Below, piece by piece: positions 8,768 to 60,999 of a stretch of DNA of 64,000 bases. Positions within the stretch are counted from its first letter, which is position 1. Every line of letters starts with the position of its first letter. The stretch lies in IMG/VR virus record IMGVR_UViG_3300021431_004532, positions 5,612-69,611 of that record; one strand, 5' to 3'. The DNA is from a virus (lineage: Duplodnaviria > Caudoviricetes). The position numbers were made by a program, and so were the translations under genes. Under the pieces are notes generated by a model. It saw only the letters and a program-made list of their open reading frames with translations, was not told the DNA's origin and ran no database searches.

Positions 8768-9733
8768 ATGTCGACAGGCTATATAAAGTTATATCGTTCT
8801 TCGCAAGATGACCCACTCTACATGAAGGAAGCCTTCACCAAGTGGCAAGCATGGTGTGACTTGATACTGTTAGCATACTTTGCGCCAGCCGAGTTTTTTG
8901 TCAGAGGTGTCCGTGTAAAAGCCAAGAGAGGCTGTGTATACAAAGGTGTCCTTGAACTCGCAGATAGATGGAAATGGAGCCGTGGAAAGGTAGAGAGATT
9001 TCTTTCGTACCTTGAAACGGACAAGAGAATAAGCATACAGAAAAGTCACGTAATTAGCTGTGTGTCAATACTTAACTATGACAAGTATCAGCAAAACGAG
9101 TCAACAAACGAGACAACAGATAAGACAACAAACAGGTCAACAAACGAGTCAACATATAAGAATATAAAGAAGAATAAGAAGAATAATATATTATCTTTAC
9201 CCGAGTCGCAAAATTGCGACATCGGTTTGGATGATGAGCCTGATATTCTCCAGCAGTTGTTAGAGAAGGTTGATTCTCTCAGCAAACGTGTTGAAGAAAT
9301 GGATTCCACACCTAAGAAGCAAACGAAGAAGCAAGTAAACCCTCTCATCACGTTGGGAAGACAAATCTTCGAGGAAAGGTATTCCAGTCTGTTTGACGGA
9401 GGTGTCTATTACTGGCAGGCAAAAGATGCCGTAGCGATGGACTCGCTTACAAAGAAGATAAAGCATTCTAGGGAGCAGAGAGGAATGAGTGTAGAGAATG
9501 ATGATATAGTGTCAGGTCTGAAAGCATTCATCGATTCGATTTCGGACCAGTGGATTCTCAGGAACTTCAGCGTGACGAATATCAATAGCAAGTATAACGA
9601 AATTGTCGCACAAGCAAAATCAACATTGAAAGAAAATGGCAGAAAAGTTAGCAGTACCAGAGAAGATAGGGTTAGAGACGCAGCCAGCGTTATCGCCATT
9701 CTTGAGGCAGAGGAAAGCGGAAATCCTCAGTAA
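8768..9733 (+). CDS. Phage replication initiator (replisome organizer) with internal iterons
   Basis: MSTGYIKLYR N-terminus and winged-helix region, followed by 12-bp repeats and an A-rich tract, lambda O-like layout. Confidence 0.75.
   Translation: MSTGYIKLYRSSQDDPLYMKEAFTKWQAWCDLILLAYFAPAEFFVRGVRVKAKRGCVYKGVLELADRWKWSRGKVERFLSYLETDKRISIQKSHVISCVSILNYDKYQQNESTNETTDKTTNRSTNESTYKNIKKNKKNNILSLPESQNCDIGLDDEPDILQQLLEKVDSLSKRVEEMDSTPKKQTKKQVNPLITLGRQIFEERYSSLFDGGVYYWQAKDAVAMDSLTKKIKHSREQRGMSVENDDIVSGLKAFIDSISDQWILRNFSVTNINSKYNEIVAQAKSTLKENGRKVSSTREDRVRDAASVIAILEAEESGNPQ
9099..9158 (+). repeat. Five 12-bp iterons (RGWCAACADAYR), probable replication origin
   Basis: agtcaacaaacg agacaacagata agacaacaaaca ggtcaacaaacg agtcaacatata, then AT-rich DNA. 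Confidence 0.7.
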
Positions 9734-11019: not shown

Positions 11020-11128
11020 TTAACAGCGTTTTAGCAAGAAAATAATGGTTGAAATCCTTGCATATTTGCTAAAAAATGACTACCTTTACACTATAATTAA
11101 AGAAACACTAAAAAAAGTAAGAGCAATG
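11003..11128 (+). promoter_or_regulatory. Class B promoter module copy 1
   Basis: AAAAGTTAAA at 11003, TACCTTTACACTATAA at 11081, AAGAGCAATG at 11119. Confidence 0.75.
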
Positions 11129-11506: not shown

Positions 11507-11555
11507 GGTAACGGGAGGTGTAACCGACCTCCCACATTTAAGAAACGTAAGAGCA

Positions 11556-12131
11556 ATGAAAGATTTGAAGAAAATGAAGAGCGAATTCGAAAAGAAATTG
11601 AAGTTCGCAGAAAAGGAAAATCAACTGGAAGAAAGATTTGGTTGTCAGTTCCTTGTGTTTGAACGCTACAAAGCAGACGGTGCAAGAATTTATGCAAAGG
11701 AGATAGATTTGCATATTGCGTCAGAACTGCTGAAAGCTTTCCCTGCTGACGAGGAAGTGCCATTAGATACGTCAGCGAGAAATCCGAAAGGAAATGTAAA
11801 GGGTTTGTATCATGCAAGAACAGAAAGAGGTTTTAGGGATTCCTATACTAAGTTGCGTATAGAATGGTTACACAAAGGAGATGAGTACGACTTTGATGTC
11901 AGGATTGATGGCAATGAAAGACTTGAACGCTTCTTTGTTAATGACCAGCGCAAAATGACCAGTTCCGAATGTGAAACCTACAGACCCCTGAGACGTGGTC
12001 ACATTGTTAGAGACATGGATTTGCCGATTAAGAGATTCCTCTGCAATCAAATAGAGTATCAAGGCGGTTACAGGTCTGCAACGGAACCTGAGAGAATAAA
12101 GGAAATTATAGACGCAATCAAGGAGGTTTAG
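11556..12131 (+). CDS. Accessory island 1 hypothetical protein
   Basis: Starts at AAGAGCAATG; hairpin GGGAGGT/ACCTCCC upstream (11513-11533). Confidence 0.6.
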   Translation: MKDLKKMKSEFEKKLKFAEKENQLEERFGCQFLVFERYKADGARIYAKEIDLHIASELLKAFPADEEVPLDTSARNPKGNVKGLYHARTERGFRDSYTKLRIEWLHKGDEYDFDVRIDGNERLERFFVNDQRKMTSSECETYRPLRRGHIVRDMDLPIKRFLCNQIEYQGGYRSATEPERIKEIIDAIKEV

Positions 12132-12457: not shown

Positions 12458-13129
12458 ATGGAATTTTTTAAGACAATCGCAGATTTTCTGCAAGACGGAC
12501 AGCAATTAAGTATTGCAATCAGGAAAAGCGGTGAGAATATCGCAGTAAGTATCTTACCTGACAATCGTGGAGTAAAAGACCAAGCAGTCAAGAATATCAC
12601 TCCACTGGTTATGAGTGGCACGGCTGAAGATTTCGAGCAGGGCTTCGAAGCTGCTCTCCAGCCTTTGGCTCAGGCTCAGGGTCTCGTTACCAATATCAAG
12701 GAGTTTGAAGAAAGCACCGAGAAAGCCAAGAAAGAGTCGGAAATGGCTAAGAAACTCAAAGACGAGGCAAGCAAGCAGAAGAAGGAGTTCAACGACCTCA
12801 TTGCCCTTGCTCGTAAGAATAAGGATGAGCATAAGTTCAAAGACGCTCGCTCCATTCTCGTCAAAGCCTCTGCCCTACCCTCTGCAGAGAAGTCTATCAT
12901 TGACAAGGTCAGCAAGGAGATTGACAGTGCTAGTGGCGTAGGCAATATGTTCGGTGGCGAGCAGGATATGAGTGACGGCAAAGATGTCGGCTCTGAGTCT
13001 ACGGAAGCACCAGCCACAACTCCTGCCCCTGACAAGAATGCTACTGAGGAAGCATTCAAAAAGGCTATGGAGCTTGAAGACGACGAGCCTGACACCAATG
13101 ACAATAACGATAACGAAGAGGAGGAATAA
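12458..13129 (+). CDS. PRTRC system protein E
   Basis: MEFFKTIA...LSIAIRK...VSILP...ITPLVMSGTAEDFEQGF N-terminus; upstream of Ub-like gene. Confidence 0.75.
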   Translation: MEFFKTIADFLQDGQQLSIAIRKSGENIAVSILPDNRGVKDQAVKNITPLVMSGTAEDFEQGFEAALQPLAQAQGLVTNIKEFEESTEKAKKESEMAKKLKDEASKQKKEFNDLIALARKNKDEHKFKDARSILVKASALPSAEKSIIDKVSKEIDSASGVGNMFGGEQDMSDGKDVGSESTEAPATTPAPDKNATEEAFKKAMELEDDEPDTNDNNDNEEEE

Positions 13130-13131
13130 GT

Positions 13132-13341
13132 ATGGCACTTAATGTAACAGGAATGAAGAGAGTGTTCAAGTATGGCAATCGAACACTTGAAGACCCAAGT
13201 AAGAATATGACACCTGACGAGGTAATGCAGTTCTATTCTGCAACCTACCCAGAACTGACCACAAGCAATGTGCATGGTCCAAAGATGGAGGGTGACAAGG
13301 CTGTCTATGAGTTCAAGACCACTGTAGGAACCAAAGGATGA
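13132..13341 (+). CDS. PRTRC system protein C (prokaryotic ubiquitin-like)
   Basis: RVFKY...LEDP...MTPDEVMQFYSATYPELTT...FKTTVGTKG ending in Gly. Confidence 0.9.
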   Translation: MALNVTGMKRVFKYGNRTLEDPSKNMTPDEVMQFYSATYPELTTSNVHGPKMEGDKAVYEFKTTVGTKG

Positions 13342-13348
13342 GTAAGCA

Positions 13349-14536
13349 ATGCAAATCAGAGGAACAGTTAACACCATTCCACAATGCCCTGTATTCAATC
13401 ATAGAGAACGAAGAGCATCAATGGTACAGAGTAAGAGAGCAGGAGCAACAGCCGTTGCTCCCTCCCTCTGCACCTCTGCTTTTCTGACACAGAAGATACA
13501 GCCTATAACATCTGACGAAAGTAAGGTGGCATTGTATGGTTTCAATGTAACTGAAACCCATAAGTGGATTGCAGGGTGTTGCAAACGCTTTCTTGAAACA
13601 ATAGGCATGAAGTATGATTACAAGTGCAATACTCGCCATACAAAGCCGATAATGCTCTTGGATATAATAGAATACTTCGAAAAGAAAATAGAGCCTCTTG
13701 GACTATCTCTCTCGATACGCAAGGAGGAAGAAGAAAATGACAACGAGGTTCTGAAATGTGTCGTCTATAGATATGGAAGTGAAATGGAATTGAGCATACC
13801 TGTCTTTTATTGTTGCCCTGCAGAATATCTGTCTCCTGAAGGAGCAGATTTGTATAAGCATTTCATCAAGTATGTATCAGACAGAACTAGGATAGACATC
13901 GGAGTTAAGGAGTATACTGATAACTATTATCTCGGTATGTTGAGTGACATTTATCAAGACACCTGTTGTCAGGAAGAAGATGACGTCCAGTTCGGTATGG
14001 TAAAGCATTACTGCAATAACGGCAAGTTCAGACCTCTGCTGGATGAGATAGATGCACTACCAGTATATGAGGGGAAATACTTTAAGACGTTACTGGAAGA
14101 ATATCGCCACAAATGCCCGTCTGAAGAGCATGATTTGGTCGAATGCATGATAGACGGCATAGATGTAGTAAAGGACCTAAACAGGCATTGGTTTGATTTT
14201 GACCCTGACAATGACGGAATGCCTAATGCCAATGGGTACGTTGAAGACGTAAACAGTTCAAGCGGTGTAATGGCATCAGCAATCCTTTACTCGGAAAATG
14301 ATGGATTGTGTGACGAAATGCTTGATATGATAAACGGAGACGCTGATTCTGGTCTTAACATCACGACATGGAATATCTGTCAGTATTTGACACCAAAGTT
14401 GAAGAAGTCACATATAAAAGAGTTCGTGAGGTGCAAGGATTTAGTGAGAGATTTCAAAGAATGGTTAGACAAGTTTTATAATGCCTCAGGTAAATTTGAT
14501 AGATATGGGGAACCTGAAGAATGTACTGAGCAATGA
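13349..14536 (+). CDS. PRTRC cassette protein (protein F position), function unknown
   Basis: 395-aa ORF between Ub-like and E2-like genes; identity from position only. Confidence 0.45.
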   Translation: MQIRGTVNTIPQCPVFNHRERRASMVQSKRAGATAVAPSLCTSAFLTQKIQPITSDESKVALYGFNVTETHKWIAGCCKRFLETIGMKYDYKCNTRHTKPIMLLDIIEYFEKKIEPLGLSLSIRKEEEENDNEVLKCVVYRYGSEMELSIPVFYCCPAEYLSPEGADLYKHFIKYVSDRTRIDIGVKEYTDNYYLGMLSDIYQDTCCQEEDDVQFGMVKHYCNNGKFRPLLDEIDALPVYEGKYFKTLLEEYRHKCPSEEHDLVECMIDGIDVVKDLNRHWFDFDPDNDGMPNANGYVEDVNSSSGVMASAILYSENDGLCDEMLDMINGDADSGLNITTWNICQYLTPKLKKSHIKEFVRCKDLVRDFKEWLDKFYNASGKFDRYGEPEECTEQ

Positions 14537-15206
14537 GTTGATAGCAACTTGTGCTTTGGTGTTCTACAAGAACAGCGTACTGAAAGGCGCCTATGTAGAA
14601 CGCAGAGAGATAAAAAATGGTGTCATGGGAGCAGGTAAGCCTCTCAATGTGGAAACACTGGCATCACTGTTAAAGACGGTAGAAAAGTTTGCAAAAGATT
14701 CCACCTCGATGGTTTCTCTTCATGGAGAGATACCAGAGAACCTTCTGTATGCAAGTACGAATATTGATACGTACAAATTGGTATGGTATAGGAAGCCTGA
14801 GAAGAGAATGCTTTATTTCTCTGATAAGTTATCGATACCGAATGGAGAAATGGAAGTGCCAGGACTTATTTATGTGGCTAACGGTTCTTCGTTGGATATG
14901 TATGCTTTCAAAGGCACCAAGCCGACCTCAAAATCAGTTTTGTATAACGCTCCGTTTTTTAACGTAGATGGCTATGTTTGTCTAGGCAACGGTAAGATGC
15001 AGAAGCCGAAGATTCAGTCATACAATAACTGGATGAAGTATTGGGAGGATATGTTTTGGAAAACGGAGTTTTCGCATATTCTTGGTGAGAATCCGATAAA
15101 AGGTAATCTTGCTCTCATAACAAAGGATTGCATACGCCACCACAAGCCGTTTCCTACCTCAGTCCTAGTGAAAACTGACAAGAAACTACAATCACTATAC
15201 AAGTAA
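14505..15206 (+). CDS. PRTRC system protein B (prokaryotic E2 family D)
   Basis: LVWYRKP...VPGLIY...LYNAPFFNVDGYVCLGN with conserved Cys. Confidence 0.85.
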   Translation: MGNLKNVLSNELIATCALVFYKNSVLKGAYVERREIKNGVMGAGKPLNVETLASLLKTVEKFAKDSTSMVSLHGEIPENLLYASTNIDTYKLVWYRKPEKRMLYFSDKLSIPNGEMEVPGLIYVANGSSLDMYAFKGTKPTSKSVLYNAPFFNVDGYVCLGNGKMQKPKIQSYNNWMKYWEDMFWKTEFSHILGENPIKGNLALITKDCIRHHKPFPTSVLVKTDKKLQSLYK

Positions 15207-15266
15207 AGATGATGTATAACAGTACAAGAGAATACAAACATGCAAAGAGATACTAAACACAGAACG

Positions 15267-16043
15267 ATGAAAAGAAAGCACTACGTTCACCAGTATATGT
15301 TAGACCCATGGCACCCATTGACTGTAGCATTGGTGGGGGTTGGTGGAACAGGTTCACAAGTTCTCACTTCGTTAGGTAGGATGAACTACGCTTTGAAACA
15401 GTTAGGTCACAATGGTCTGCACGTAACAGCGTACGATAACGACATAGTGACACCTGCAAACTGTGGCAGGCAGTTATTCTCTCCTGTAGAGGTCGGAAGG
15501 AATAAGGCTGAGGTTCTTATCAGCAAAGTTAATGCATTTTTCGGTACTGATTGGGACAGCGTTCCTAAGTTCTTCGATGAAACCACCGAACTTGCTAACA
15601 TCGTAATATCATGTGTTGATACGGTGAGTGCCAGAATGGTTATAGATAAGCGACTAAAAGAAGGCAATGTGTATTCACATATAGGAGATATGTTAAGATG
15701 CTATTATTGGCTGGACTTTGGAAATACGCAGAACACTGGTCAGGTCATATTAGGAACTGCATACGATTTCAAAGAAGACATGAAAATAAGAGGGAATGTA
15801 AGCAAGTTACGATGTGTGACAGATTTCTTCGATCTGTCTAAGGTTAATGAGAAAGACAGCGGACCAAGTTGCTCCCTTGCAGAAGCTCTGAGCAAGCAGG
15901 ATTTGTTCATCAACTCCACTCTGTCACAGATAGGCATGGCGATTATGTGGAAGATGTTCACGAAAGGTGTCCTCGAGACTCAGGGAGCGTTTCTGAATCT
16001 TGAAACAATGAAAGTAAACCCCATAAAGGTAGAGAAAGTATGA
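15267..16043 (+). CDS. PRTRC ThiF-family E1-like adenylyltransferase
   Basis: GVGGTGSQV, DNDIVTPANCGRQLF, GRNKAEVL, ISCVD, DFGN, PSCSLAEALSKQDLFIN. Confidence 0.9.
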   Translation: MKRKHYVHQYMLDPWHPLTVALVGVGGTGSQVLTSLGRMNYALKQLGHNGLHVTAYDNDIVTPANCGRQLFSPVEVGRNKAEVLISKVNAFFGTDWDSVPKFFDETTELANIVISCVDTVSARMVIDKRLKEGNVYSHIGDMLRCYYWLDFGNTQNTGQVILGTAYDFKEDMKIRGNVSKLRCVTDFFDLSKVNEKDSGPSCSLAEALSKQDLFINSTLSQIGMAIMWKMFTKGVLETQGAFLNLETMKVNPIKVEKV

Positions 16044-17007: not shown

Positions 17008-17078
17008 TAGCAGTTAGTTTAGCGGTAAAATACCAGATGCCTAATCTGGAGCCACGGGTTCGAATCCTGTACTGCGTC
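17008..17078 (+). tRNA. tRNA-like element 3 (loop TGCCTAA; Arg-CCT with G33, or shifted Gly-GCC)
   Basis: D-arm GTTT-AGCGGTA-AAAT; CCAGA/TCTGG stem; T-arm ACGGG-TTCGAAT-CCTGT; acceptor only 5 bp. Confidence 0.55.
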
Positions 17079-17194: not shown

Positions 17195-18271
17195 ATGAAA
17201 GTTTCGGTAATTGGAGCAGGAAATGTCGGTGTCGCTATAGCAGCCGACTTATCTATTAGAGGTCATGAGGTCACCTTGATTAAGACCTCAGGCAAAAAAT
17301 CAGAGTCTTTTGAGAGACTGAAAATGAATGGCAACCGTGTGTATCTCAAAGAAGACGGTAAGTACACAGAGACTGTCATACACGAAGTGACACAAGAGTT
17401 GTCAAAGGTTTCTTTGGCAGATGTAGTAATTGTGACCATACAGAGTTCTTATCACGAACCGTTGTACAAGAAGATGGCTAAGTATCTAAAGAGTGAGCAG
17501 ACGGTGCTCATTATCTGCAGTTACATGTCATCTTTTTATTTGGTAAGAGAAAGTGTCAAGTGTAATGTCATGCCAGTCATTGCAGAGGCAACAGGTCCTT
17601 ACCTCGAGGGGCGTGTAGAGTTGAAAGACAAACCCAGCGAGGTTGTTTTTCGTGTCGGCTGCAGGCTGACAAGAAGCCCTTTGTCTGTTTTCCAGAAGGA
17701 GCGTGCTGACGAATGTATGGCAAAACTAAAATCGCTGTATGAGGGATTGAGCAACGATTACTCCTACATAGAGTCAGCCTTGCTTAATCCGAACCTTGTG
17801 ATACACACCGTAGGAGCAATCATGAGCATTCCACGCATAGAGTACAGCGAGGGAAACTTCTGTATGTATCGTGAGGCATATTGTCATAAGAACGAGGCAA
17901 CGATAAAAGTAATGCTCCAGTTAGATGAAGAGAAGAAGAAAGTGTTGAAACACCTAGGAGGCAGACCTATTGACATCATGGAGGCTGGCGGTTTCCTCAA
18001 AGGCATGGAGAGCTTCTATGAGTATTCAGAGTCAGAAGACAGAGCTATCAGTCCCACCTCTATTCACTCAAGGTATATCACGGAAGATGTGTCGCAAGGC
18101 TTGGTTTTACTCGAGAGCATAGCAAAAACGATAGGCATCGCTACACCTATTACTACTTCGCTGATAGACCTTGCTGGTTGTGCGTTAGGTGAAGATTTTC
18201 GCAAAGAAGGTCGTACTATTGAACGACTAAACGCTGCAAAAGTAATCGTAAATATGTTTAAGTACGAATGA
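17195..18271 (+). CDS. NAD(P)-dependent opine (octopine/nopaline) dehydrogenase family protein
   Basis: Rossmann VIGAGNVG; ALLNPNLVIHTVGAIMS and RYITEDVSQGLV motifs of the opine-DH C-terminal domain. Confidence 0.85.
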   Translation: MKVSVIGAGNVGVAIAADLSIRGHEVTLIKTSGKKSESFERLKMNGNRVYLKEDGKYTETVIHEVTQELSKVSLADVVIVTIQSSYHEPLYKKMAKYLKSEQTVLIICSYMSSFYLVRESVKCNVMPVIAEATGPYLEGRVELKDKPSEVVFRVGCRLTRSPLSVFQKERADECMAKLKSLYEGLSNDYSYIESALLNPNLVIHTVGAIMSIPRIEYSEGNFCMYREAYCHKNEATIKVMLQLDEEKKKVLKHLGGRPIDIMEAGGFLKGMESFYEYSESEDRAISPTSIHSRYITEDVSQGLVLLESIAKTIGIATPITTSLIDLAGCALGEDFRKEGRTIERLNAAKVIVNMFKYE

Positions 18272-20343
18272 ATATAGGAGAAGACTTAAAAAGCAGGACC
18301 TTTGGCATAGAGATTGAAATGTGCAATCTTGACAGGCAGTTGGTAAAGTTGCCTGATGGTTTCTCCTGGAGTAAAGATGAGGAAATCGTAAACACTGACG
18401 GGTCATGTAACAAACGATTTGGTGGAGAGGTTAATACCCCTCCACTCTGTGTTTACAGTATGAATGATCTGCACAACCTGAAAGCGTGTTATGAATCTAT
18501 GAAGGAGGCAGGAGGCGTGATAAAATGGACTACCTATACTCACGTCCATATCTATGCAGGTGATTTGTCAGTAGAGCAGATAAAAAAGGTGTGGCTGTTC
18601 TTCTATATCTGCTATCCTTGGTGGAAGAGATACACGAAGCTTTCCGATTGGGATGAGAAGGTGTTCAACTGCCAGCCTTTGCCGACAGAGAAATACTATA
18701 ATGGTCTGATTGAGGCTGAGACCTATGAGGACATCAACAAACTGTTCACGAACCAGTCAAAGAAAGGATTTATAAGACATGCCTGCAATATCTCTGCGTA
18801 CTTCAAGACGAAGACGATAGAGTTCAGGACATATCATGGCACGAGCGATTTCAGGGAGGCGATGAACTGTGTCCTTTCGTCGTATCGATTGTTCTACTAT
18901 GCAATAAATCATGATTTAGAAGACTTCAAATCAATTTCCTCCTATGAGCAATTTTTGCATGTTACAAAGCTCAAATACGAGTGTCCTAGAGAGTTAATTC
19001 CCCTCCTTTATCAAGGAAACCCCTATAGTGCGATAGAGACGTTCCAGACCAAATCTCTGCCGTATAATTCGAAGCAGGCATCAGCCTTATGGGAGGCTAT
19101 CAAGAATCACGGGCATAAGGAGTTGTGTATTGTTAATGGCTTTATGTACTACTATGAGTTATTCTTCATGGAGAAGGTGAAGTTGACGATTTATGCTCAA
19201 GACGCTTATTGTCATTTACTATGGATGATTGCCAATGGTAAGGTAACTCTCAAGTATAAAGAGAAACTGTCATGGTTGGAGGATTATAACAATGACACTC
19301 CTGCAAGACAACTGGCACTGGCACTCTATGCAGAGAAATTGCAGAAATTCTCCATGAGCGAATCAGACAGAAATGATGCTGTCCTGGAGTCTGTCAAGAT
19401 ACGTGCAAGAGAGTCTATCGAGAAGACGGAGAAAGGCAGTGAGCGCCTTTTGAAACTGCTGACTACTTGCGAATATCACGTGGGAACCCTGCAAGATGCC
19501 ATACCAAAAGAGAAAGTGATATTCTTCAATTATGGCAAGGATAAGACACAGAAACGCACGTTCAAACTGATAGTTGAGAACAGCGATTTGGAAATGGAGT
19601 TCAACGTGAAACGTAATGATTACTATGAAGTAATCGAGACGCTTCCGAAAGACTCTTTCTTCTACTATTTCAGCAATAGCCCGTATTTGAGTAATATGCA
19701 CAAATTGGCTATGTGGAATTCCTCAAAGGGAGAACGTTGGTCCGCAGGCAGGTTCCTTTATTGCAATAAGCCTAGCAACAGTAATCAGGTCAGCACGTCA
19801 TATAAATCTAGTCACGTCGAGGTCAATGAAATTGTTCCTCCAGACGAACTGGTTATTGACAATGCAAACAGTCTTAAGATAGCAAGGGTTGACTCTGATG
19901 TATTATATGCCTTGCAGAAGAAGTATATTCGAAAGGTTGATATGGTCAGTCACTGCACCTATGCGTTTGTTGTGATGTATGAGAAGTACACACTGGGAGG
20001 GTTCGGTTTCACGCTACCTCAGCACAAAGGTTATGACCTATTCCAGTTGACTGATTTCTGCACGAATAACAATGTGCCGAGACTCGCTAAGTTTATCCTG
20101 CTTTGCATTCAGACTGCAGAAGTACAGAAGGTGTTAAGTAGGCGTATGCACAAGTTATGTGAGAAGGTGATTTCCTGCGCCTATACACACAAGCCAGTCT
20201 CCATGAAGTATCGTGGTGTCTATACGAAAGTGAAGGAACACTGCACATCATCATATCTGGCTTATGAAGGTCAGTTAGGCAAATATGCTAGCAACAAAGA
20301 AGTAATAGAGAAATATCAAAAAATGTTGAAGAATGGAAATTGA
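18268..20343 (+). CDS. Fusion: amidoligase (COOH-NH2 ligase type 2) + degenerate MTase-like region + C-terminal GNAT/Mom-like domain
   Basis: RTFGIEIE, GEVNTPPL, THVHI, KTIEFRTYHGT in the N-terminal ~220 aa; C-terminal GGFGF...LTDF...PRLAKFIL...THKPVSMKYRGVY recalled from phage GNAT-like proteins. Confidence 0.7.
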   Translation: MNIGEDLKSRTFGIEIEMCNLDRQLVKLPDGFSWSKDEEIVNTDGSCNKRFGGEVNTPPLCVYSMNDLHNLKACYESMKEAGGVIKWTTYTHVHIYAGDLSVEQIKKVWLFFYICYPWWKRYTKLSDWDEKVFNCQPLPTEKYYNGLIEAETYEDINKLFTNQSKKGFIRHACNISAYFKTKTIEFRTYHGTSDFREAMNCVLSSYRLFYYAINHDLEDFKSISSYEQFLHVTKLKYECPRELIPLLYQGNPYSAIETFQTKSLPYNSKQASALWEAIKNHGHKELCIVNGFMYYYELFFMEKVKLTIYAQDAYCHLLWMIANGKVTLKYKEKLSWLEDYNNDTPARQLALALYAEKLQKFSMSESDRNDAVLESVKIRARESIEKTEKGSERLLKLLTTCEYHVGTLQDAIPKEKVIFFNYGKDKTQKRTFKLIVENSDLEMEFNVKRNDYYEVIETLPKDSFFYYFSNSPYLSNMHKLAMWNSSKGERWSAGRFLYCNKPSNSNQVSTSYKSSHVEVNEIVPPDELVIDNANSLKIARVDSDVLYALQKKYIRKVDMVSHCTYAFVVMYEKYTLGGFGFTLPQHKGYDLFQLTDFCTNNNVPRLAKFILLCIQTAEVQKVLSRRMHKLCEKVISCAYTHKPVSMKYRGVYTKVKEHCTSSYLAYEGQLGKYASNKEVIEKYQKMLKNGN

Positions 20344-22250: not shown

Positions 22251-23762
22251 ATGGTTCCAGCAGACAAGAGACAGAAGAAAATGCGAGCGTGGCGCAACGA
22301 TTGGTGTTTATTCGCCAAAGAAGTGCTTCACGCTCGTCTTGATGAAGAACAAAAGGCTATCCTGCGTGCAGTTCAAAATGAACGTATGGTAGCTGTTGCT
22401 TCGGGCACTGCTCGAGGCAAGGACTTCATTGCTGCTGTTGCTTGTCTTTGTTTCATGTACCTCACTCCTCGTTGGAAAGACGGAAAGCTGATCGGCAATA
22501 CTAAGATTGCCATGACAGCGCCTACGGACAGACAGGTAAGAAATATCATGGTTCCAGAGGTAAGACGACTGTTCAAGTCTGCAGGTGTACTGCCTGGCCG
22601 ATTGGTCGGTTATGATATAAGAACGAATTACGAAGAATGGTTTTTGACAGGCTTCAAATCAAGCGCTGATAATACTGAGGCTTGGTCAGGCTTTCATGCG
22701 GTGAATACTATGTTTGTAGTTACTGAGGCATCTGGTATCTCGGAAACGATATACAATGCCATAGAGGGTAACTTGCAGGGTAATTCACGATTGCTGATAG
22801 TGTTCAACCCCAATGTCACAACTGGCTATGCAGCCAAAGCCATGAAATCTTCACGCTTCAAGAAATTCAGGCTAAACTCCCTACATGCAGAGAATGTAAT
22901 AAGCAAGAGAAACGTAATCCCTGGTCAGGTGGATTATGAGTGGGTGAAGGATAAGGTGGAGAACTGGAGTATTTCAATCAGTGAAGATGACAGGAACGAA
23001 GGAGAGGGCGATTTCAAGTGGGAAGGTCGGTGGTACAGACCTAATGACCTTTTTCGTGTCAAAGTGTTGGGAATGTTTCCTAAGGTGGCAGAAGACGTGC
23101 TGATACCATATGAATGGGTAGAGCTCGCCAATATAAGGTGGAAGGAAATGCAGGAAGAAGGATTTGAGCCAAAGAAGAAATGCCGTCTTGGTGTCGATGT
23201 CGCTGGCATGGGAAGAGACTCTTCGGTGCTTACACCTAGATACGGAAACTATGTTGGAGAGTTTGAAGTTCATAACTCTGCTGGAAAGGCAGACCACATG
23301 CACGTTGCAGGTATGACTGTGCCTTACCTCAAACAGAAAGGCGTCAAAGTTTTCATAGATACAATCGGTGAGGGTGCTGGAGTATTCTCCAGATTGCAGG
23401 AATTGAAATACAGCAATGCTTATTCTTGCAAATTCTCAGAGAGTGCAAAAGGGTTGCATGATGTCACAGATGTATATACTTTCTCTAATATGAGAGCATA
23501 CCTGTATTGGGCTGTCAGGGACTGGCTGAATCCGAAGAACGGATTTAACCCTGCATTGCCACCAAATGATTTGCTGATGCAGGAATGTACTGATATACAC
23601 TGGAAATTTCAAAGTTCAGGAGATATTATCATGGAGTCGAAAGATGAGATTAAAAAGCGATTAGGGCGGTCTCCAGACTATTTCGATTCGCTTGCCAATA
23701 CATTCTACCCAAGAAATTATGAAGAGATACAAGAGAGCGAATTGTTCAAAGATTTCTTGTAG
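22251..23762 (+). CDS. terL: Terminase large subunit
   Basis: SGTARGKD Walker A-like, VTEASG Walker B, nuclease GVDVAGMGRD, SPDYFDSL. Confidence 0.9.
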   Translation: MVPADKRQKKMRAWRNDWCLFAKEVLHARLDEEQKAILRAVQNERMVAVASGTARGKDFIAAVACLCFMYLTPRWKDGKLIGNTKIAMTAPTDRQVRNIMVPEVRRLFKSAGVLPGRLVGYDIRTNYEEWFLTGFKSSADNTEAWSGFHAVNTMFVVTEASGISETIYNAIEGNLQGNSRLLIVFNPNVTTGYAAKAMKSSRFKKFRLNSLHAENVISKRNVIPGQVDYEWVKDKVENWSISISEDDRNEGEGDFKWEGRWYRPNDLFRVKVLGMFPKVAEDVLIPYEWVELANIRWKEMQEEGFEPKKKCRLGVDVAGMGRDSSVLTPRYGNYVGEFEVHNSAGKADHMHVAGMTVPYLKQKGVKVFIDTIGEGAGVFSRLQELKYSNAYSCKFSESAKGLHDVTDVYTFSNMRAYLYWAVRDWLNPKNGFNPALPPNDLLMQECTDIHWKFQSSGDIIMESKDEIKKRLGRSPDYFDSLANTFYPRNYEEIQESELFKDFL

Positions 23763-23799
23763 TTTTTTGGTGGAATACGAAAAAATGCTTAACTTTGCA

Positions 23800-23880
23800 G
23801 TGTTTCTTAAATGACGGCTGCTTTCTGCAGTCTTCATTGCTCTTGCCAGTCAAAGCCGTGAGGCCAAGACTGGTTTTTTT
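23800..23880 (+). ncRNA. Candidate trans-acting sRNA 1 (antisense to AAGAGCAATG start sites)
   Basis: Own -7 box TAACTTTG (23790-23797); small 5' hairpin; TCTTCATTGCTCTT (23831-23844); terminator CCAGTC...GACTGG + T-run. Confidence 0.6.
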
Positions 23881-23924
23881 TGTTTGTTATGGGTAAAACT
23901 GTAAGTTTATGGGTAAAAGTGAGC

Positions 23925-24048
23925 AAAAGTTAAAACTCTGATTTTCAGTATTTTGACTATTATTTTTCTTGTATTTTTCTTGCATATTTGCAAAAAAATG
24001 ACTACCTTTACACTATAAATAAGAAACTTATAAAACAAAAGAGCAATG
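23925..24048 (+). promoter_or_regulatory. Class B promoter module copy 2
   Basis: AAAAGTTAAA 23925, TACCTTTACACTATAA 24003, AAGAGCAATG 24039. Confidence 0.75.
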
Positions 24049-24450
24049 AAGAAAGAAGTTAAGAAATTTGTGGTTTACTACAATGAAAGACAGCAGTTAA
24101 TCGGAATGCGTGAACATCACTTCGATTGGGAAGAGGGTGACACGATAACGACAGACGGAGTAAGCACTACGATTTTCGGAATCTTCGAGGGAACGAAGAA
24201 GAACCTGAGTCTGGCACATAGGATGTTCGATACCCTCAGGAAGTATCTGCCGAAGAAGAAGATGGTAAGAGTTCTCGACGAGGGCTTTGTGAAGACAGGT
24301 GATCAGATAGAGGATATGTTGAATGCGCTGGTCCATTCTCACATGGAGCTTGTCGATGTTCACAAGAAGATTTGGAAGAACTTCGATGCACAGTTAGATT
24401 TCGTAGATAGTGTTTTCGAAAAGATGAATAAGAAAGGAGGCAAGTCATGA
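24046..24450 (+). CDS. Accessory island 2 hypothetical protein
   Basis: Starts at AAGAGCAATG. Confidence 0.6.
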   Translation: MKKEVKKFVVYYNERQQLIGMREHHFDWEEGDTITTDGVSTTIFGIFEGTKKNLSLAHRMFDTLRKYLPKKKMVRVLDEGFVKTGDQIEDMLNALVHSHMELVDVHKKIWKNFDAQLDFVDSVFEKMNKKGGKS

Positions 24451-25339: not shown

Positions 25340-25433
25340 TGATTTAGATGAGTCCCTGCATTCAGGGATTACATTGCTCTTTAATAAGATGAAGACAGTT
25401 GTGCCTGTCTGTGAAGATCGGCACAATTTTTTT
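25340..25433 (+). ncRNA. Candidate sRNA 2 / 3'-UTR element with CATTGCTCTT
   Basis: Hairpin TCCCTG/CAGGGA, then CATTGCTCTT (25372-25381), then terminator TTGTGCC/GGCACAA + T-run (25399-25433). Confidence 0.5.
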
Positions 25434-25456
25434 AGAACCTAATCAAACAAGAAGAT

Positions 25457-30441: not shown

Positions 30442-30566
30442 AAAAGTTAAACTATTTGAAAATCAGCACGTTATGACGAAAATAACGTGCTTTTTGCTTG
30501 CATATAAGCTAAAAATTGACTACCTTTACACTATAAATAAAGAACCTATAAAACAAAAGAGCAATG
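30442..30566 (+). promoter_or_regulatory. Class B promoter module copy 3
   Basis: AAAAGTTAAA 30442, TACCTTTACACTATAA 30521, AAGAGCAATG 30557. Confidence 0.75.
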
Positions 30567-30833
30567 AAAGAATTTAGTAGAAAAGAGTTCGCAGTCCTCA
30601 AGCACAAAGTTGAGGTAGAAACAAGTTACAACTGCCATTCAGAGGCATTGAAGATGATAGCAGATTTCTTTGGCTATCCTGAGTATAGTTACCTGTTCTT
30701 GCAGTATTCTCTCAAGGAAGGGCTCAGTGTAAAGGAATTTGAGGAAAAGTGTGAAGCCTCAGACAGAATGTTCATCATCATCGAGAAACAGTATGGCAAA
30801 GATGTTGTCAATGAGCTAAAGAAAGTATTATAA
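30564..30833 (+). CDS. Accessory island 3 hypothetical protein
   Basis: Starts at AAGAGCAATG. Confidence 0.6.
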   Translation: MKEFSRKEFAVLKHKVEVETSYNCHSEALKMIADFFGYPEYSYLFLQYSLKEGLSVKEFEEKCEASDRMFIIIEKQYGKDVVNELKKVL

Positions 30834-30858
30834 GTTTAACCAGTAAATTTTTAGAGCA

Positions 30859-31473
30859 ATGAAGAAAGAAGAAATGAAAGCGGCTATCACAGCCAACTTT
30901 GAGAACCACGAGTTCAATGAGGCAATGGAACTGAACAAAGATTTGTTCCAGGAGTATGAGAAAGTAGCAGGCAAGCGTAGTCTTGCGAGTCTTATTACCT
31001 ACTGGAAGAAGAAGAATGTTTCCCCTGCTCCTGCAGAGGAACCAACCAAGCAGGAAGAGATAACTGCAACAGAAAGTCAGGGCGAGACTCCAAAAGAGGG
31101 TGTCGAGGTAAAGACTGGCATCATCGACGAGGAGAAGGCAAAGGCTATTATTGAGTCTTCAAATGCAGGTTTGTATTGTATCATCAAAGAAGAGTTCAAG
31201 CAGGTAAGCGATACTGAGCGCTTCGTACAGACCACCATGATTGTCAAGCCTGACGGAGCTGGCTGGGACACCTACAAAGATGTTGTTGCTAAACTCGGAG
31301 GTAAGAAGGGTGTCAGCAAGCGTAAGGTCGGTAGTCTCTGGAGGTCCAACTGCGGTATCCCTGTAGGAGAAGAAATCACTACATGGAATATATGGAAGAT
31401 TGGCGATGCCCTCAAGCGCTATGCTTTCAGGAACAACGAGTCTGCACTGAGAAAGGTAACAACTGTATTATAA
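30859..31473 (+). CDS. Accessory island 3 hypothetical protein
   Basis: Starts at AGAGCAATG. Confidence 0.6.
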   Translation: MKKEEMKAAITANFENHEFNEAMELNKDLFQEYEKVAGKRSLASLITYWKKKNVSPAPAEEPTKQEEITATESQGETPKEGVEVKTGIIDEEKAKAIIESSNAGLYCIIKEEFKQVSDTERFVQTTMIVKPDGAGWDTYKDVVAKLGGKKGVSKRKVGSLWRSNCGIPVGEEITTWNIWKIGDALKRYAFRNNESALRKVTTVL

Positions 31474-32137: not shown

Positions 32138-32176
32138 TATTTCAAACACTTTTTGGAATGTTTTTTGTAATTTTGT
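32138..32176 (+). promoter_or_regulatory. Class A-like late promoter for head-tail operon
   Basis: TATTTCAAACA box then TAATTTTG at 32168-32175. Confidence 0.55.
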
Positions 32177-32278
32177 TACCGACAAGGCGTATGTAGGTGC
32201 ACACATAATACCTTTTCTGAATTGATGATTATGCGTTCATCACGACGCTATAAGTGTAATCATTAAAAAAGTTCCACA

Positions 32279-51991: not shown

Positions 51992-53662
51992 ATGGGAAGA
52001 CTTAATTCGATAAAGCTGCCTCTTGGCACAGCCGATGAGCGCATGACGCTCACTCAGGCACAGGTGAATACACTCATCAATGTGTATTACGACCAGAATG
52101 TTACGACTAAGCAAATCAGTGGCTATGTGTACAAGGAGAGTATATCTATGCGTGAGCACTATATTCTCACACAGCTGGGACTGGACGTAGAGTACGAGAC
52201 GATGACTACCGATTCGTGGTCATTTACCTCTGATAAGAGTGTATTGCGTAACGGTGAGTCCGCTACGCTTGCATTCGGCAATGCCCTCACTTATCAAGAC
52301 GTGGTGTTGAGCATTGACAGTATCAGTGTTGACTATGGTAGCGTCACTGTTGAACAGGTGGAGTCATGGGTAACTCTCGAAAATGGCGTGCTGTCTCTTG
52401 ACAAGGGCAGTTCTACGGATAACTTCGTAGCCAAAGTATCTTTGTCAGCGCACCCTTTGTGGAACACTGATGACGTTAAGACACTCGCTATCGACCTGAA
52501 CGAGGCGAATGCTAGGACAGTATGGATAAATCCTGCCAGTCAGTCAACTGCACTCGCTCATACTGGTAGCATGGAACTGCTGGAAGATTATATCAATCGC
52601 TGCAAGTGCTATGTATTCAATGCTAATGGCTCCAAGAAGGCTGAGATTGCTTCTGCCACCTTCAAGGGTAACTACAGCGGTATGACGGCTGGCACCGTGA
52701 CCTTTGCGGACGGTACGACGGTGAATATTGCCGACCTCAATGCTGCTGGCTGCAACTTCATGGTACTACGTCCAGAGCTTCATATCTTCAGTGGTCTGAA
52801 CGAGGACCAGGAAGAGATACTGCGTTGCACTGGAGTCTTCAATATTGGCGAAGGTGAGAAGGTATTCCCTAAGAAGTACATCGGTATGTTCAAGGCATTC
52901 GAGCAGAACAGCATCATAAAGTCTCAGCCTAACCGAATTCCTACAGGCGAACGTACTATCGCTCAGTTCCAACAGCGAGCTGCTGCTGGTGGCGCTGGCT
53001 ACGGTCTGTGGAACTACTCTGATTGGTGCAAGGAGAATGCTATACATCTTGCGTGGTTTGCTAACACCAACTACGATACCAACGTAGGTGTAGGACGTGT
53101 GGGCGGTGACCAGAATGCTTACAACCGTATTCGTAACATCGTGACTGGCTTCACTCTACCTCTTGCTGGTCAGTATAAGTGTGGCAACGTAGCCACACAG
53201 GACCAAGGAGGCTATACGGTCAACTGCCTTAACTTCTTCGGAATAGAGGGTATGGGTGAGCAGATATGGGAATTCGTTATCGGTTTCCGTCACAATGGTA
53301 CAACGGCATTTATCTGGGACGATAATGCTTGGAGTGAAACACAGGCTCCTGACCGTACGTTAGACCTCAAAGTGACCAACACCTCAGGTACGTATATCAA
53401 GTCGGTTATCGCTGGTGCTGATTTCGATATGCTTCCTAGAGAGGTAGGAGCGTCCGCTACTACAGGAATGTGCGACGGTCACTGGGTGAGCAATCAGGGC
53501 AGGTTGCTGCGCGTCGGCGGTGATGCGAATGGCGGCTCGTTGTGCGGTCTGTCGGCTTCGAACGCGAATGCTCCGTTCTCGGCCTCGTATGCGGATTACG
53601 GTGCTCGTCTGGCTTTCTATGGCGAACCCGAGCTCGTGGACGGTGCGGATCTGCTTGTCTAA
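51992..53662 (+). CDS. DGR target protein (receptor-binding, C-type-lectin fold) with C-terminal VR
   Basis: NFFGIEGMGEQIWEF and GARLAF terminal motifs; last ~120 nt match the TR. Confidence 0.9.
   Translation: MGRLNSIKLPLGTADERMTLTQAQVNTLINVYYDQNVTTKQISGYVYKESISMREHYILTQLGLDVEYETMTTDSWSFTSDKSVLRNGESATLAFGNALTYQDVVLSIDSISVDYGSVTVEQVESWVTLENGVLSLDKGSSTDNFVAKVSLSAHPLWNTDDVKTLAIDLNEANARTVWINPASQSTALAHTGSMELLEDYINRCKCYVFNANGSKKAEIASATFKGNYSGMTAGTVTFADGTTVNIADLNAAGCNFMVLRPELHIFSGLNEDQEEILRCTGVFNIGEGEKVFPKKYIGMFKAFEQNSIIKSQPNRIPTGERTIAQFQQRAAAGGAGYGLWNYSDWCKENAIHLAWFANTNYDTNVGVGRVGGDQNAYNRIRNIVTGFTLPLAGQYKCGNVATQDQGGYTVNCLNFFGIEGMGEQIWEFVIGFRHNGTTAFIWDDNAWSETQAPDRTLDLKVTNTSGTYIKSVIAGADFDMLPREVGASATTGMCDGHWVSNQGRLLRVGGDANGGSLCGLSASNANAPFSASYADYGARLAFYGEPELVDGADLLV
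53501..53617 (+). repeat. DGR variable repeat (VR)
   Basis: 117 bp; 14 mismatches to the TR, all at TR adenines. Confidence 0.97.
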
Positions 53663-53700
53663 CATTTTAATAATAGTAATATATAAAGGTAGATTGGGTG

Positions 53701-53817
53701 AGGTTGCTGCACGTCGGCAGTAATGCGAATAACGGCTCGTTGTGCGGTCTGTCGGCTTCGAACGCGAATAATCCGTTCTCGAACTCGAATGCGAATTACG
53801 GTGCTCGTCTGAAATTC
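53701..53817 (+). ncRNA. DGR template repeat (TR)
   Basis: 200 bp downstream copy of the VR; 25 adenines; nine in-frame AAY codons. Confidence 0.97.
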
Positions 53818-53975: not shown

Positions 53976-55343
53976 TTGATTGACAATCTGAACATAACGA
54001 CTATACGTGGCAAGTACAGAAAGGTGAAGCTGGAGCAGGTCTATGATAAGGATAACCTCATAGCCGCTGAGAAGGAGGCTCGTAGAGGCAAGGGCAAGAA
54101 GTATGGCGTACGTAAGTTCGATAAGCAAGCTGAGGAAAACCTAAAAAAGGTGCAGTCCATGCTGATTAACAGGACATACCATACTTCTCCTGTCAAGACT
54201 GAGGAGCAGTATTGTCCTTGTGGCAAGGTCAGGAAACTGGCTAAACTGCCATACTGCCCTGACCATATCATTCATCATGCACTGATGAGGGTAATAGGTC
54301 CAGTGATAACAAGGTCGTACTACTTTGATTCGGCTGCGAGTATCAAGGGCAAGGGCATAGAGTTCTCCCGTAAGCGCCTGAGACGTTTCATTGACAAGAA
54401 CAGACACCGTGACATCGTATTTGCTAAAATGGATTTCACGAAGTTCTATCACAAGATTAGTCAGGAGCTGGTATTCGCTGAGCTGTGCAGAATGTTCCAT
54501 GATGAGGGCATACGCTGGCTAATGCGTGAGGTGGTGACTGCTGTCGATGAAGGTCTGGGTATCGGACTGTTTCCAATACAGCCGATTGCTAATATGTACC
54601 TAAACAGATTAGACAGGCTGATTGGTAAGGGTAAAGGTGGTAGAATACACCTGTTCCGTTACTGCGACGACCTGCTGATAGTAGGCTTCGACACTAAAGA
54701 GGTGTGGAAGGCTGTGGACGTTGTGAGACATTATGCTGACGAGGTGCTGCACCAACCGCTGCATACCAATATCAATGTGGAGCACGTCACCAACACCGTA
54801 GGCATTGACTTCGTAGGCTATGTGTTCTACAAGGACTACACTCTCCTGCGTAAGAGAACGAAGAAACGCATGAAGAGGAGGGTGGCGAGGTATAGTCGTC
54901 AGATTGAAGACAAGAAGCCTGGTGCAGAGAGTCGCTTATTTGACACTCTGGCAAGCTACAAAGGCTGGCTAATGCATTGCAATGGTAGAAATTTATGGTA
55001 TAAAGTAACAGGTATGAAAAAGTTTAGTGAATTGGGTATTAAAAATTCGTCTGTCAATTCAGACGGTTCGGTGTTCTTTAATGTGCCTCTGGTAGGCTGC
55101 AATTTTCTTGCTAATCATGAAATCGTTGTGAAGGATTTCCAAGAGGGAGTTGACACTGTCAAAGGCAAGGGCAGGTTTGTGGTTCTTGTGGAGGAAAATG
55201 GTCATGAATGCAAGTTCGTGACAAACAACCCACGAATGAAAGACACTCTCCTGCAGTGCAGGGAAATGGAAGCGTTTCCTTTTTCTGCTACTATGAAGAG
55301 CCGTTCGCTGGGTGGCAGTAAGGTTGATTATTATTTTGAGTAG
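53976..55343 (+). CDS. DGR reverse transcriptase with ~110-aa C-terminal extension
   Basis: DHIIHHAL, DFTKFY, GIGLFPIQPIANMYL, RYCDD, GIDFVGY, SYKGWL; TTG start. Confidence 0.95.
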   Translation: MIDNLNITTIRGKYRKVKLEQVYDKDNLIAAEKEARRGKGKKYGVRKFDKQAEENLKKVQSMLINRTYHTSPVKTEEQYCPCGKVRKLAKLPYCPDHIIHHALMRVIGPVITRSYYFDSAASIKGKGIEFSRKRLRRFIDKNRHRDIVFAKMDFTKFYHKISQELVFAELCRMFHDEGIRWLMREVVTAVDEGLGIGLFPIQPIANMYLNRLDRLIGKGKGGRIHLFRYCDDLLIVGFDTKEVWKAVDVVRHYADEVLHQPLHTNINVEHVTNTVGIDFVGYVFYKDYTLLRKRTKKRMKRRVARYSRQIEDKKPGAESRLFDTLASYKGWLMHCNGRNLWYKVTGMKKFSELGIKNSSVNSDGSVFFNVPLVGCNFLANHEIVVKDFQEGVDTVKGKGRFVVLVEENGHECKFVTNNPRMKDTLLQCREMEAFPFSATMKSRSLGGSKVDYYFE

Positions 55344-58095: not shown

Positions 58096-58113
58096 AATGA
58101 ACTGAAAAAAACG

Positions 58114-58173
58114 GGTCAACAGATAGGTCAACAAACAGGTCAACAGATAGGTCAACAGATAGGTCAACATATA
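58114..58173 (+). repeat. Five tandem 12-bp repeats GGTCAACA(G/A/T)A(T/C)A; second iteron array
   Basis: Intergenic; same consensus, copy number and trailing ATATAAGAA as 9099-9158. Confidence 0.85.
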
Positions 58174-58266
58174 AGAAGATATAAGAATATATATATATTA
58201 TTAAGGGCATGACAAAAAATGTCAGCCCTTTTTTGGTTCTTCTCATTTTCTGCCGTTTTGAAAAAG

Positions 58267-58394
58267 AAAAGTTAAATAATTGGAAATTAAGCAGTTAGCG
58301 AACATCTTTTATGGAAAAACCCTTGCAAAATTGTAAAAAAATGACTAACTTTACACTATAAATTAAGAAACACCCAAAAAAGGAAAGAGCAATG
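58267..58394 (+). promoter_or_regulatory. Class B promoter module copy 4
   Basis: AAAAGTTAAA 58267, TAACTTTACACTATAA 58346, AAGAGCAATG 58385. Confidence 0.75.
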
Positions 58395-58736
58395 AAGAAG
58401 TTTAAGATTTATCAGGTTGATAGCACCTCAAAGGAAGGTGGCTACATCAAGTTCATGAATTTGGATTTCGTTAAGGAGAATGGACTTTGTACAATGGCTG
58501 GCGACACCTGTAAGATAGACAGCGCCCTCTACAAGAAAGTGTATGAAGGAAAGATTACCACTTCTCCTGACGAGTCAGATGAATTCAAGTTGGAACTGTT
58601 ATACAAGAAGTTTCAGGGTACGAAGCCTGCAGGCTACACTGGTCACAGTCTGTCAGTATCAGACGTAGTGGTATTAGGTGAAAAAGCCTACTATGTTGAC
58701 AGCTTCGGATTTGAAGAGATAGTTTTTGAAGTTTAA
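58392..58736 (+). CDS. YodL-like domain protein
   Basis: FKIYQV...YKKVYEG...GHSLSVSDVVVL...YYVDSFGF. Confidence 0.8.
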   Translation: MKKFKIYQVDSTSKEGGYIKFMNLDFVKENGLCTMAGDTCKIDSALYKKVYEGKITTSPDESDEFKLELLYKKFQGTKPAGYTGHSLSVSDVVVLGEKAYYVDSFGFEEIVFEV

Positions 58737-58755
58737 CCTATAAATTGTAAGAGCA

Positions 58756-59259
58756 ATGAACATTGAAAGATTAAAGAAAGCGGTTGAAGAACTCGAGACG
58801 TTAATTGAGGAAATGCAAGATGAATGCTCCCAATTCAGGGAGAAGAAGAGTGACTGGTATGATTTCCAGTTATGCAGGCGGAATAGCGGACTGCAAACCA
58901 GAGAGCAGTTTGACAAGGAAGTGTTTGATAAGTATCAGGAGATAGACACGTTATTCGATGATGATCTGTTCTCTCTGCAACGTGGAATACTCAATCTGGA
59001 GACAAGGTATCGTGAGTTTGACAATGTGAGCAAGAGACTTGACAAGATAGTGGAAGATTCGGACAAGAATATTCCTGAGGGTTGGAAACTGTGGAAGGTG
59101 ACCTTCAACGACAGCGACTATACTAGTCTTGATAGCAGGACTGTTTATGGTCCCAATGAGGAATATGCTAAGAATCGGATTCTTGCCATTCAGAAGAGAG
59201 ATTACAATGAGATTAACGTAACTAAAGTGGAGGAGGTTGTCAATGGCAAACTGTTGTGA
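58756..59259 (+). CDS. Accessory island 4 hypothetical protein
   Basis: Starts at AAGAGCAATG. Confidence 0.6.
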   Translation: MNIERLKKAVEELETLIEEMQDECSQFREKKSDWYDFQLCRRNSGLQTREQFDKEVFDKYQEIDTLFDDDLFSLQRGILNLETRYREFDNVSKRLDKIVEDSDKNIPEGWKLWKVTFNDSDYTSLDSRTVYGPNEEYAKNRILAIQKRDYNEINVTKVEEVVNGKLL

Positions 59260-60337: not shown

Positions 60338-60474
60338 AAAAGTTAAACTATCTGAATACCAGACTGTTGCAAGCAAATTAGGAGTGAAAACGCTTGTCTA
60401 TTTGCTAAAAAATGAGTACCTTTACAATAGATTTAAGGAACATCATTATTAACCTATTTAAGAACAGAGCAATG
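60338..60474 (+). promoter_or_regulatory. Class B promoter module copy 5
   Basis: AAAAGTTAAA 60338, TACCTTTACA 60417, AGAGCAATG 60466. Confidence 0.7.
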
Positions 60475-60999
60475 AGTAAGAAACAAGAAAACGAGATTTT
60501 GAAGTCAAAGACAGTTCACTCAAGGAGTGGAGAGAGTTACGAAATCAGTCTGTCACAAGAGCAGATGAACGACCTCAGAAAAGGAGCTGAAATATGCAAA
60601 CTGAATGGTCATGATTTCAGGTATTTCCTCGAGGACTATGTGCCAATAGTGATAAAGCATAACTGGCCTGAAATGGCTGCTGTCGCTTTCAATGACGTAC
60701 ACCCAGAACTGAAGGTAGGAATGGGTGCCACGATGAACCTCTATTCAGACAGGAGGGCAATGACCATAGTGAAGATTGTCAGTCCGACAGAGATAGTAGT
60801 TGCCGAGAACAAGACCAAGTGCCTTGATTACTATGCTGGAGAATACGAAGTCCTGCCAGACCTTGCAGAATACATGAGGCAGAGCACCTTTACGCTGAGA
60901 AAGGGAGGTACATGGGTAGAGAAAGGTCAGCCTAAGAAGTATGGCAGTGTCACACTCTCTGTGGGATTCCAGCGTCATTACATAGACCCAAGTTTTTAA
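60472..60999 (+). CDS. Accessory island 5 hypothetical protein
   Basis: MSKKQENEIL; C-terminal VGMGAT...YSDRRAMTIVK...GFQRHYIDPSF. Confidence 0.6.
   Translation: MSKKQENEILKSKTVHSRSGESYEISLSQEQMNDLRKGAEICKLNGHDFRYFLEDYVPIVIKHNWPEMAAVAFNDVHPELKVGMGATMNLYSDRRAMTIVKIVSPTEIVVAENKTKCLDYYAGEYEVLPDLAEYMRQSTFTLRKGGTWVEKGQPKKYGSVTLSVGFQRHYIDPSF

Follow-up and report, generated by a model that had tools for sequence, protein, structure and literature searches.

The sequence analyzed here, which we call the window, is a 64-kb part of a 69.6-kb virus record. It holds terL and portal genes (terL being phrog_2) and a tyrosine integrase gene at 62786-64000. A small HTH-like gene at 1194 faces away from two minus-strand ORFs, and the complete relative G003 is arranged in this way too. 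A Pfam search of the two minus-strand ORFs opposite gene 1194 gave no match; by position only, we read this divergent pair as a CI/Cro-like switch. Relatives of the window phage reside as prophages in Prevotella, Parabacteroides and further Bacteroidales, with family members in Prevotella vespertina A2879, Prevotella sp. KH2C16 and Parabacteroides faecalis AGMB00274; it is itself a temperate gut or rumen Bacteroidales phage. Kinship with the LoVEphages was considered and rejected: against MW660583, the first 40 kb have a single protein in common and terL has no match.

Several other modules lie in the window. PRTRC system genes (protein E, ThiF) follow island 1 (12458-16043), the islands being the gene groups described below. 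Upstream of the terminase genes, an opine-dehydrogenase-like gene and an amidoligase/DAM-like/GNAT fusion (17195-20343) may form a DNA-modification module. A pair of 111-nt repeats and a reverse transcriptase gene beside the tail genes (53501-53811 and 54159-55343) look like a diversity-generating retroelement. Iteron-like repeats of 12 bp occur inside a replication gene (9091-9203), with a second copy 49 kb off (58106-58218), intergenic and before island 4; three tRNA genes are found at 17010, 17100 and 37046.

A promoter-to-terminator unit behind terL

About 40 nt past the terL stop codon begins a candidate sRNA unit that has, by its sequence, its own promoter, an intrinsic terminator and no ORF (Table 1). 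The promoter elements at 23766-23769 and 23790-23797 match perfectly the sigma-ABfr consensus, which we took from PMC7366714. The first-pass annotation had described a unit of about 80 nt with its own -7 box, a 5' hairpin and a terminator, and this description stands, with a length of ~81 nt and a fold z-score of -3.6. Its claim that the seed is single-stranded holds for 23839-23844, a free 6-nt stretch; the AUG-complementary 23834-23838 is paired in the 5' stem, leaving seed 2 half-buried. The unit presents a feature by which a trans-acting base-pairing sRNA is recognized, a conserved accessible seed directed at translation-initiation regions elsewhere, with seed 2 half exposed in the window copy. 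An Rfam search at the gathering cut-off and at E<=5, with the C4 and FopS models included, found no family; the promoter/terminator scanner, built on sigma-70 and unbulged-stem models, gave no usable call on the unit.

Table 1. Candidate sRNA, second seed unit and tagged leaders in the window
Feature	Position	Strand	Remarks
terL	22251..23762	+	phrog_2; conserved upstream neighbour of the sRNA unit
sRNA promoter, consensus sigma-ABfr	23766..23797	+	-33 TTTG, 20-nt spacer, -7 TAACTTTG
Candidate sRNA (type A), ~81 nt	23801..23881	+	ends placed from promoter and U-tract
Seed 1, single-stranded 5' tail	23802..23812	+	antisense to leader box 1 (core AAGAAAC); extension phage-specific
5' hairpin	23810..23838	+	predicted fold; hides AUG-complementary half of seed 2
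Seed 2	23831..23844	+	antisense to start motif; free toehold 23839-23844
Intrinsic terminator	23845..23881	+	GUGA loop conserved; ends the terL transcript as well
Second seed-bearing unit (type C), hairpin-seed-terminator	25345..25435	+	no own promoter; end of island-2 operon; homologues in L004 and L005
Cassette promoter -7 box, box 1 (11100), start motif; gene 11126	11081..11128	+	10-nt Watson-Crick match to sRNA
Box 1 (12-nt match to seed 1), start motif; gene 11556	11535..11560	+	directly behind hairpin, no own promoter; 12-nt Watson-Crick match to sRNA
Cassette promoter, box 1 (24021), start motif; gene 24046	24003..24052	+	14-nt Watson-Crick match to sRNA
Cassette promoter, start motif; gene 30564	30521..30568	+	box 1 degenerate; 12-nt Watson-Crick match to sRNA
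Start motif; gene 30859	30853..30865	+	no box 1; 13-nt Watson-Crick match to sRNA
Cassette promoter, box 1 (58365), start motif; gene 58392 (YodL-like)	58346..58398	+	14-nt Watson-Crick match to sRNA
Start motif; gene 58756	58749..58760	+	no box 1; 12-nt Watson-Crick match to sRNA
Cassette promoter, box 1 variant (60435), start motif; gene 60472	60417..60475	+	10-nt Watson-Crick match to sRNA

The unit follows terL in 64 of the 80 related IMG/VR loci (a redundant set), is present also in prophages of named genomes, and retains its -7 box in nearly all homologues. Among 23 diverse copies the seed is near-invariant over 11 positions (seed 2 positions -2 to +8 are each identical in at least 21 of the 23) while flanking positions vary freely, and both stems are variable with compensatory pairs. 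The terminator stem pairs swap among up to five pair types around the GUGA loop, itself GTRA in 23/23, and G-U pairs make up 87 of the 562 pairs in homologue stems. Pairs were counted per sequence because RNAalifold on a MAFFT alignment recovered only 4 pairs, with the stems out of register. The plus strand folds better than the minus strand in every one of the 23 homologues, by 10 kcal/mol on average. Together, the near-invariant seed, the exchanging stem pairs and the strand bias argue that the unit is under selection as a plus-strand RNA with a sequence-constrained seed. Covariation in related Bacteroidales phages, which the annotation had proposed as a check, is thus found in the stems, around a near-invariant seed.

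The tagged genes

The nine-base start motif AGAGCAATG occurs nine times on the plus strand of the window and twice on the minus strand; shuffled sequences gave 1.03 +/- 0.95, none reaching 11. Eight of the plus-strand copies span start codons at which the sRNA can pair over 10-14 nt, with lengths as given in the first-pass annotation, and these eight genes are, as it also held, the first or second genes of the islands, behind five repeated promoter cassettes. The ninth copy, at 12404, heads a 5-codon ORF only. When all 99 starts of the genome are ranked by pairing with seed 2, seven of the eight targets take ranks 1-7 and the eighth is 9th. In addition, the 5' tail at 23802-23812 (seed 1) is antisense to box 1, which is 5'-terminal in the cassette leaders and also precedes some promoter-less second genes, behind hairpins.

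An obvious objection is that the motif is merely a generic Bacteroidetes start context. In 12 genomes the tag was found at 0 of 160 core-gene starts versus 89 other starts, a count from rough automated start calls that recovered four of the eight window targets; within that limit, the claim that the motif shuns core-gene starts is borne out. In host G020, 25 of the 38 motif matches fall within a 42 kb prophage and the 13 elsewhere compare with ~14 expected; in host G019, 16 of 43 are on the prophage contig, with 27 elsewhere versus ~24 expected. Since the motif is at chance in host chromosomes outside the prophages and absent from core starts, the objection fails. In a scan of 401 Bacteroidia genomes for the seed with a loose pattern, a kind of scan in which chance matches predominate, the true unit was seen, among the matches listed, only in a prophage. 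Cofolding of whole molecules parts targets from controls poorly (2022 = -16, terL = -13) and is not counted as support.

A 13-nt wobble match at the integrase coding start (63973) was rejected as a target, being not conserved in relatives. Partial tags, with box 1 and a shortened start motif, are seen at 2022 and 13349 and, before the window, at G000:C1:150-200. The orthologue of 2022 in G003 bears a full tag, and thus genes appear to move in and out of the regulon.

The cassettes have two further features. A AAAAGTTAAA element lies ~78 bp upstream of the -7 box at all five cassette promoters (11003, 23925, 30442, 58267 and 60338) and in relatives; it is probably the DNA site of a regulator, that is, a second, transcriptional layer of control. 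The -7 boxes end in TTTA in cassettes and in TTTG in core promoters.

The tagged genes themselves are mostly anonymous. We sought the function of the window targets with PHROGs, PADLOC and the ESM Atlas and obtained none. Seven of the eight have no credible family and one (58392) is YodL-like, so the label of a host-takeover regulon given in the first-pass annotation finds no support. Its other label, accessory, is too narrow, since relatives carry the tag also on early recombination genes. The 142 tagged genes of 17 related records make up 78 unrelated families, mostly of unknown function; the named ones are RecT/Bet, AAA_24, DUF1351, RadC, MutS-I, DUF4942, DUF3560, DUF2958, YodL, DUF488, Dam and amidase, several of which we take to be typical early-acting, establishment-type genes of mobile elements.

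This diversity bears on one alternative, in which the same pairing and repression serve addiction, an antitoxin-like RNA silencing several toxic genes so that loss of the prophage kills the cell. Small unknown proteins behind strong promoters would suit it, as would the retention of at least one seed unit by every tagged phage. The many families listed above, RecT/Bet, AAA_24, RadC, Dam, YodL and DUF3560 among them, do not, and neither a toxin family nor a credible PADLOC hit was found among the tagged genes; we regard addiction as very unlikely. A type I toxin-antitoxin system would have one small toxin target adjacent to the RNA, and here the targets are many, unrelated and of 50-500 aa.

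Seed carriers and seed variation in relatives

The seed is found in a linker, in an apical loop or in a second scaffold. Carriers are the unit behind terL (type A) and the type C unit, which bears the second antisense copy of the motif in the window and whose homologues in L004 and L005 have the seed folded back on a sense copy. In many relatives, moreover, the scaffold/capsid operon has a structured leader with seed 2 in one of its loops (type B); the seed is missing from this head-operon leader in the window, G002 and G003. Among long loci, all 129 with at least two tags hold a seed carrier and the 19 tagless ones hold none (a redundant set).

The type B leader (window 32168-32278; L010:16880-17030; L008:16710-16860) is structured and covarying; for its first hairpin the terminator interior is an alternative pairing partner, which suggests an attenuator. 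A GUGA(A/G) loop is common to the type A and type C terminators (23859-23864 and 25407-25412 in the window) and the type B first hairpin, and is a possible protein-binding or tertiary-contact site.

The type B leaders, and the fact that type A terminates the terL transcript, raise the possibility that seed units are cis-acting sensors, bound by early mRNA leaders and thereby switching termination either behind terL or within the leader of the head operon. The type A unit starts at a promoter of its own and ends in a plain terminator that has no alternative fold, and the window, G002 and G003 do without a seed in the head leader, so this role carries a very low probability in our assessment.

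Seeds vary together with their targets. Across 10 phages the extension of seed 1 matches the phage's own leaders over a mean of 3.6 nt and foreign leaders over 1.6 nt; none of 100000 permutations did as well, a value that overstates independence because the compared phages are related. In G001 the seed carries C>U and all five cassette starts carry G>A, and no AGAGCAATG remains on its coding strand. In G432 the AUG complement is lost and seed 2 is extended upstream to fit its own starts (13.0 nt own, 4-8.4 nt foreign). The Paludibacteraceae prophage G014 has the same kind of cassettes with other start motifs and lacks the usual seed; upstream of its portal gene (G014:C4:19812-19945, L438/L439) lies a distinct RNA of promoter, hairpin, linker and terminator, whose linker matches its own leaders over up to 19 nt. 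The window seed and the G014 seed each bind their own leaders better than the other's. In both G014 and G432 the pairing ends short of the AUG. In the terL tree such seed/tag variants occupy six or more separate long branches. There are exceptions: single starts in L081, L009 and L013 differ from the seed of their own phage, the G433 leaders have one mismatch to seed 1 in box 1, and the type B seed of G001 is unchanged although its targets changed.

That the unit is a terL terminator only, with the complementarity a matter of chance or a relic of duplication, would fit its place so close behind terL. The conserved promoter of its own, the invariant seed between variable stems, the covariation and the seed replacement in G014 largely refute this idea, which is now barely credible.

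Covariation by itself cannot tell DNA from RNA, and the cassettes are 77-nt DNA repeats with the extra upstream AAAAGTTAAA element. The boxes, inverted copies included, might therefore be DNA sites: operators of a protein, or places where crossover or gene conversion shuffles the cassettes. We find this quite unlikely. The inverted copies always lie at exposed positions of promoter/terminator-bounded, strand-specific RNA folds; the seed is in register with the AUG; and box 1 occurs also at promoter-less internal genes behind hairpins. Moreover, seed order along the RNA equals box order along the leader; the RNA cannot then be an inverted leader copy, and a plain inverted duplication is excluded.

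The antisense, trans-acting reading of the first-pass annotation has thus come through the comparisons that sequences allow: the motif is specific, the RNA structure is conserved with covariation, and the seeds covary with their targets.

Proposed action and known systems

We propose, with a probability of roughly 0.7, that the unit encodes a trans-acting translational repressor that silences dispersed early and accessory genes through portable RNA 'operators'. From the observed sequence, conserved structure, specificity and covariation we infer its transcription, in vivo pairing, repression and timing as follows. Host polymerase would transcribe the RNA from the sigma-ABfr promoter; the 3' end of the terL message may be a further source. 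Its free 5' tail would capture leaders at box 1, close to where the cassette mRNAs begin; the 6-nt toehold would nucleate pairing, after which the 5' hairpin would open and a duplex of 10-14 nt would form over the AUG and the A-rich initiation signal. This duplex would mask the AUG together with the adenines on which initiation in this phylum relies, and translation would stop, as for GibS (PMC7366714). The boxes would act as portable RNA operators, a gene that gains the leader entering the regulon. Given the common order of seeds and boxes, one RNA cannot pair with both boxes as a simple duplex; two-site binding would need a crossed topology, two molecules or alternate use.

Pairing could instead activate or stabilize the leaders, by shielding the 5' end or by keeping the start accessible. 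Two facts would agree with activation: cassette mRNAs have box 1 at their extreme 5' end, and the pairing in G014 and G432 does not reach the AUG. In most phages, however, the AUG and A(-3) are covered; the leaders are already unstructured and A-rich, so no opening is needed; and coverage of the start represses in Bacteroides (PMC7366714). Activation is therefore unlikely.

As to timing under the repressor reading, the odds lean slightly towards the strongly promoted islands giving a burst after DNA entry, being shut as the RNA accumulates, and staying off in the lysogen. This is favoured by the consensus promoter and by the distance of the islands from the CI/Cro-like switch, as for Reg576 (PMC6294495). 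Shut-off late in lytic growth has a smaller though appreciable chance, and is favoured by the place of seed units behind terL and in the head leader; both can hold. Tentatively, and with more doubt than belief, we offer a wider picture of an RNA-only repressor/operator system, in which a constitutive phage sRNA would be the master off-switch of a portable early anti-defence and recombination regulon. New genes would join by way of the two-box leader, the regulon would be kept silent in the lysogen and incoming related phages disarmed, the variable 5' seed would set specificity groups, and unrelated Bacteroidales phages would have reached the same design with other seeds.

To our knowledge, each phage sRNA characterized so far controls a single operon or individual host genes, and very few sRNAs are known in the phylum of the Bacteroidales. 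We found no description of a Bacteroidales phage sRNA of this kind in the literature, where the motif string led to unrelated papers only. The seed was not found in the supplements of the GibS paper (PMC7366714) or in the first 200 supplement files of PMC8040213; an anonymous listing among the candidates of PMC10690425 is possible.

The temperate phage P4 has an RNA repressor acting in trans, CI RNA, and repressors of the c4/CI type have two target elements. The type B seed carrier resembles a leader-derived RNA as in P4. The c4 antisense RNA of P1/P7 (cited in PMC8201110) is likewise a temperate-phage RNA repressor working in trans. The c4 and CI RNAs control the one operon that encodes them, whereas the targets of the window sRNA are dispersed among five islands, at distances of up to 37 kb; the C4 model of Rfam does not match the window unit, and the ant/icd context was not seen there, the upstream gene being terL.

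In Bacteroides, pairing of GibS at the start codon represses mRNAs (PMC7366714). Members of the GibS/FopS family of Bacteroides thetaiotaomicron (PMC7366714, PMC11697453) are, like the window sRNA, trans-encoded with one or more seeds and an intrinsic terminator. The FopS promoter is also of the sigma-ABfr type, and GibS also has two seeds and binds across start codons, in a phylum that lacks Shine-Dalgarno sequences. The family is host-encoded, with few unrelated targets and imperfect pairing; the window sRNA is phage-encoded, with standardized, near-perfect sites on 5-20 of the phage's own genes. FopS is deposited in Rfam, whereas the window sRNA matches no Rfam model. The window RNA would thus work like GibS/FopS and P1 c4, yet by these differences it belongs with neither.

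Two other systems share its layout. The start-associated sequence (SAS) of Cluster K mycobacteriophages (PMC3203893) is an asymmetric motif that the host lacks and that marks the starts of 11-19 non-structural genes; several genomes have one copy in the opposite orientation, and the paper left open which factor binds the motif. The SAS has a 13-bp consensus that contains the Shine-Dalgarno core and lies 3-7 nt upstream, whereas the window motif includes the AUG, in a phylum without Shine-Dalgarno sequences, and, unlike the SAS, has an identified cognate, covarying candidate RNA gene. If our reading is correct, it offers a testable answer to what binds phage start-associated sequences; the tag would predict which unknown genes act early (likely in counter-defence), and the orthogonal natural seed/leader pairs could be used as translational switches in Bacteroidales engineering. 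In the Reg576 regulon of plasmid p576 (PMC6294495), too, dispersed early genes with conserved upstream sequences answer to one trans repressor, an arrangement that would yield a transient burst after entry. Reg576 is a protein on DNA operators, whereas the window system would be an RNA on mRNA sites and hence the RNA counterpart of early-gene shut-off of the Aca/Reg576 type, found in temperate phages of gut and rumen that form a common family. Trans-acting sRNAs as such are known; what is probably new here is a phage-wide, trans-acting RNA repressor with portable, co-evolving mRNA operators.
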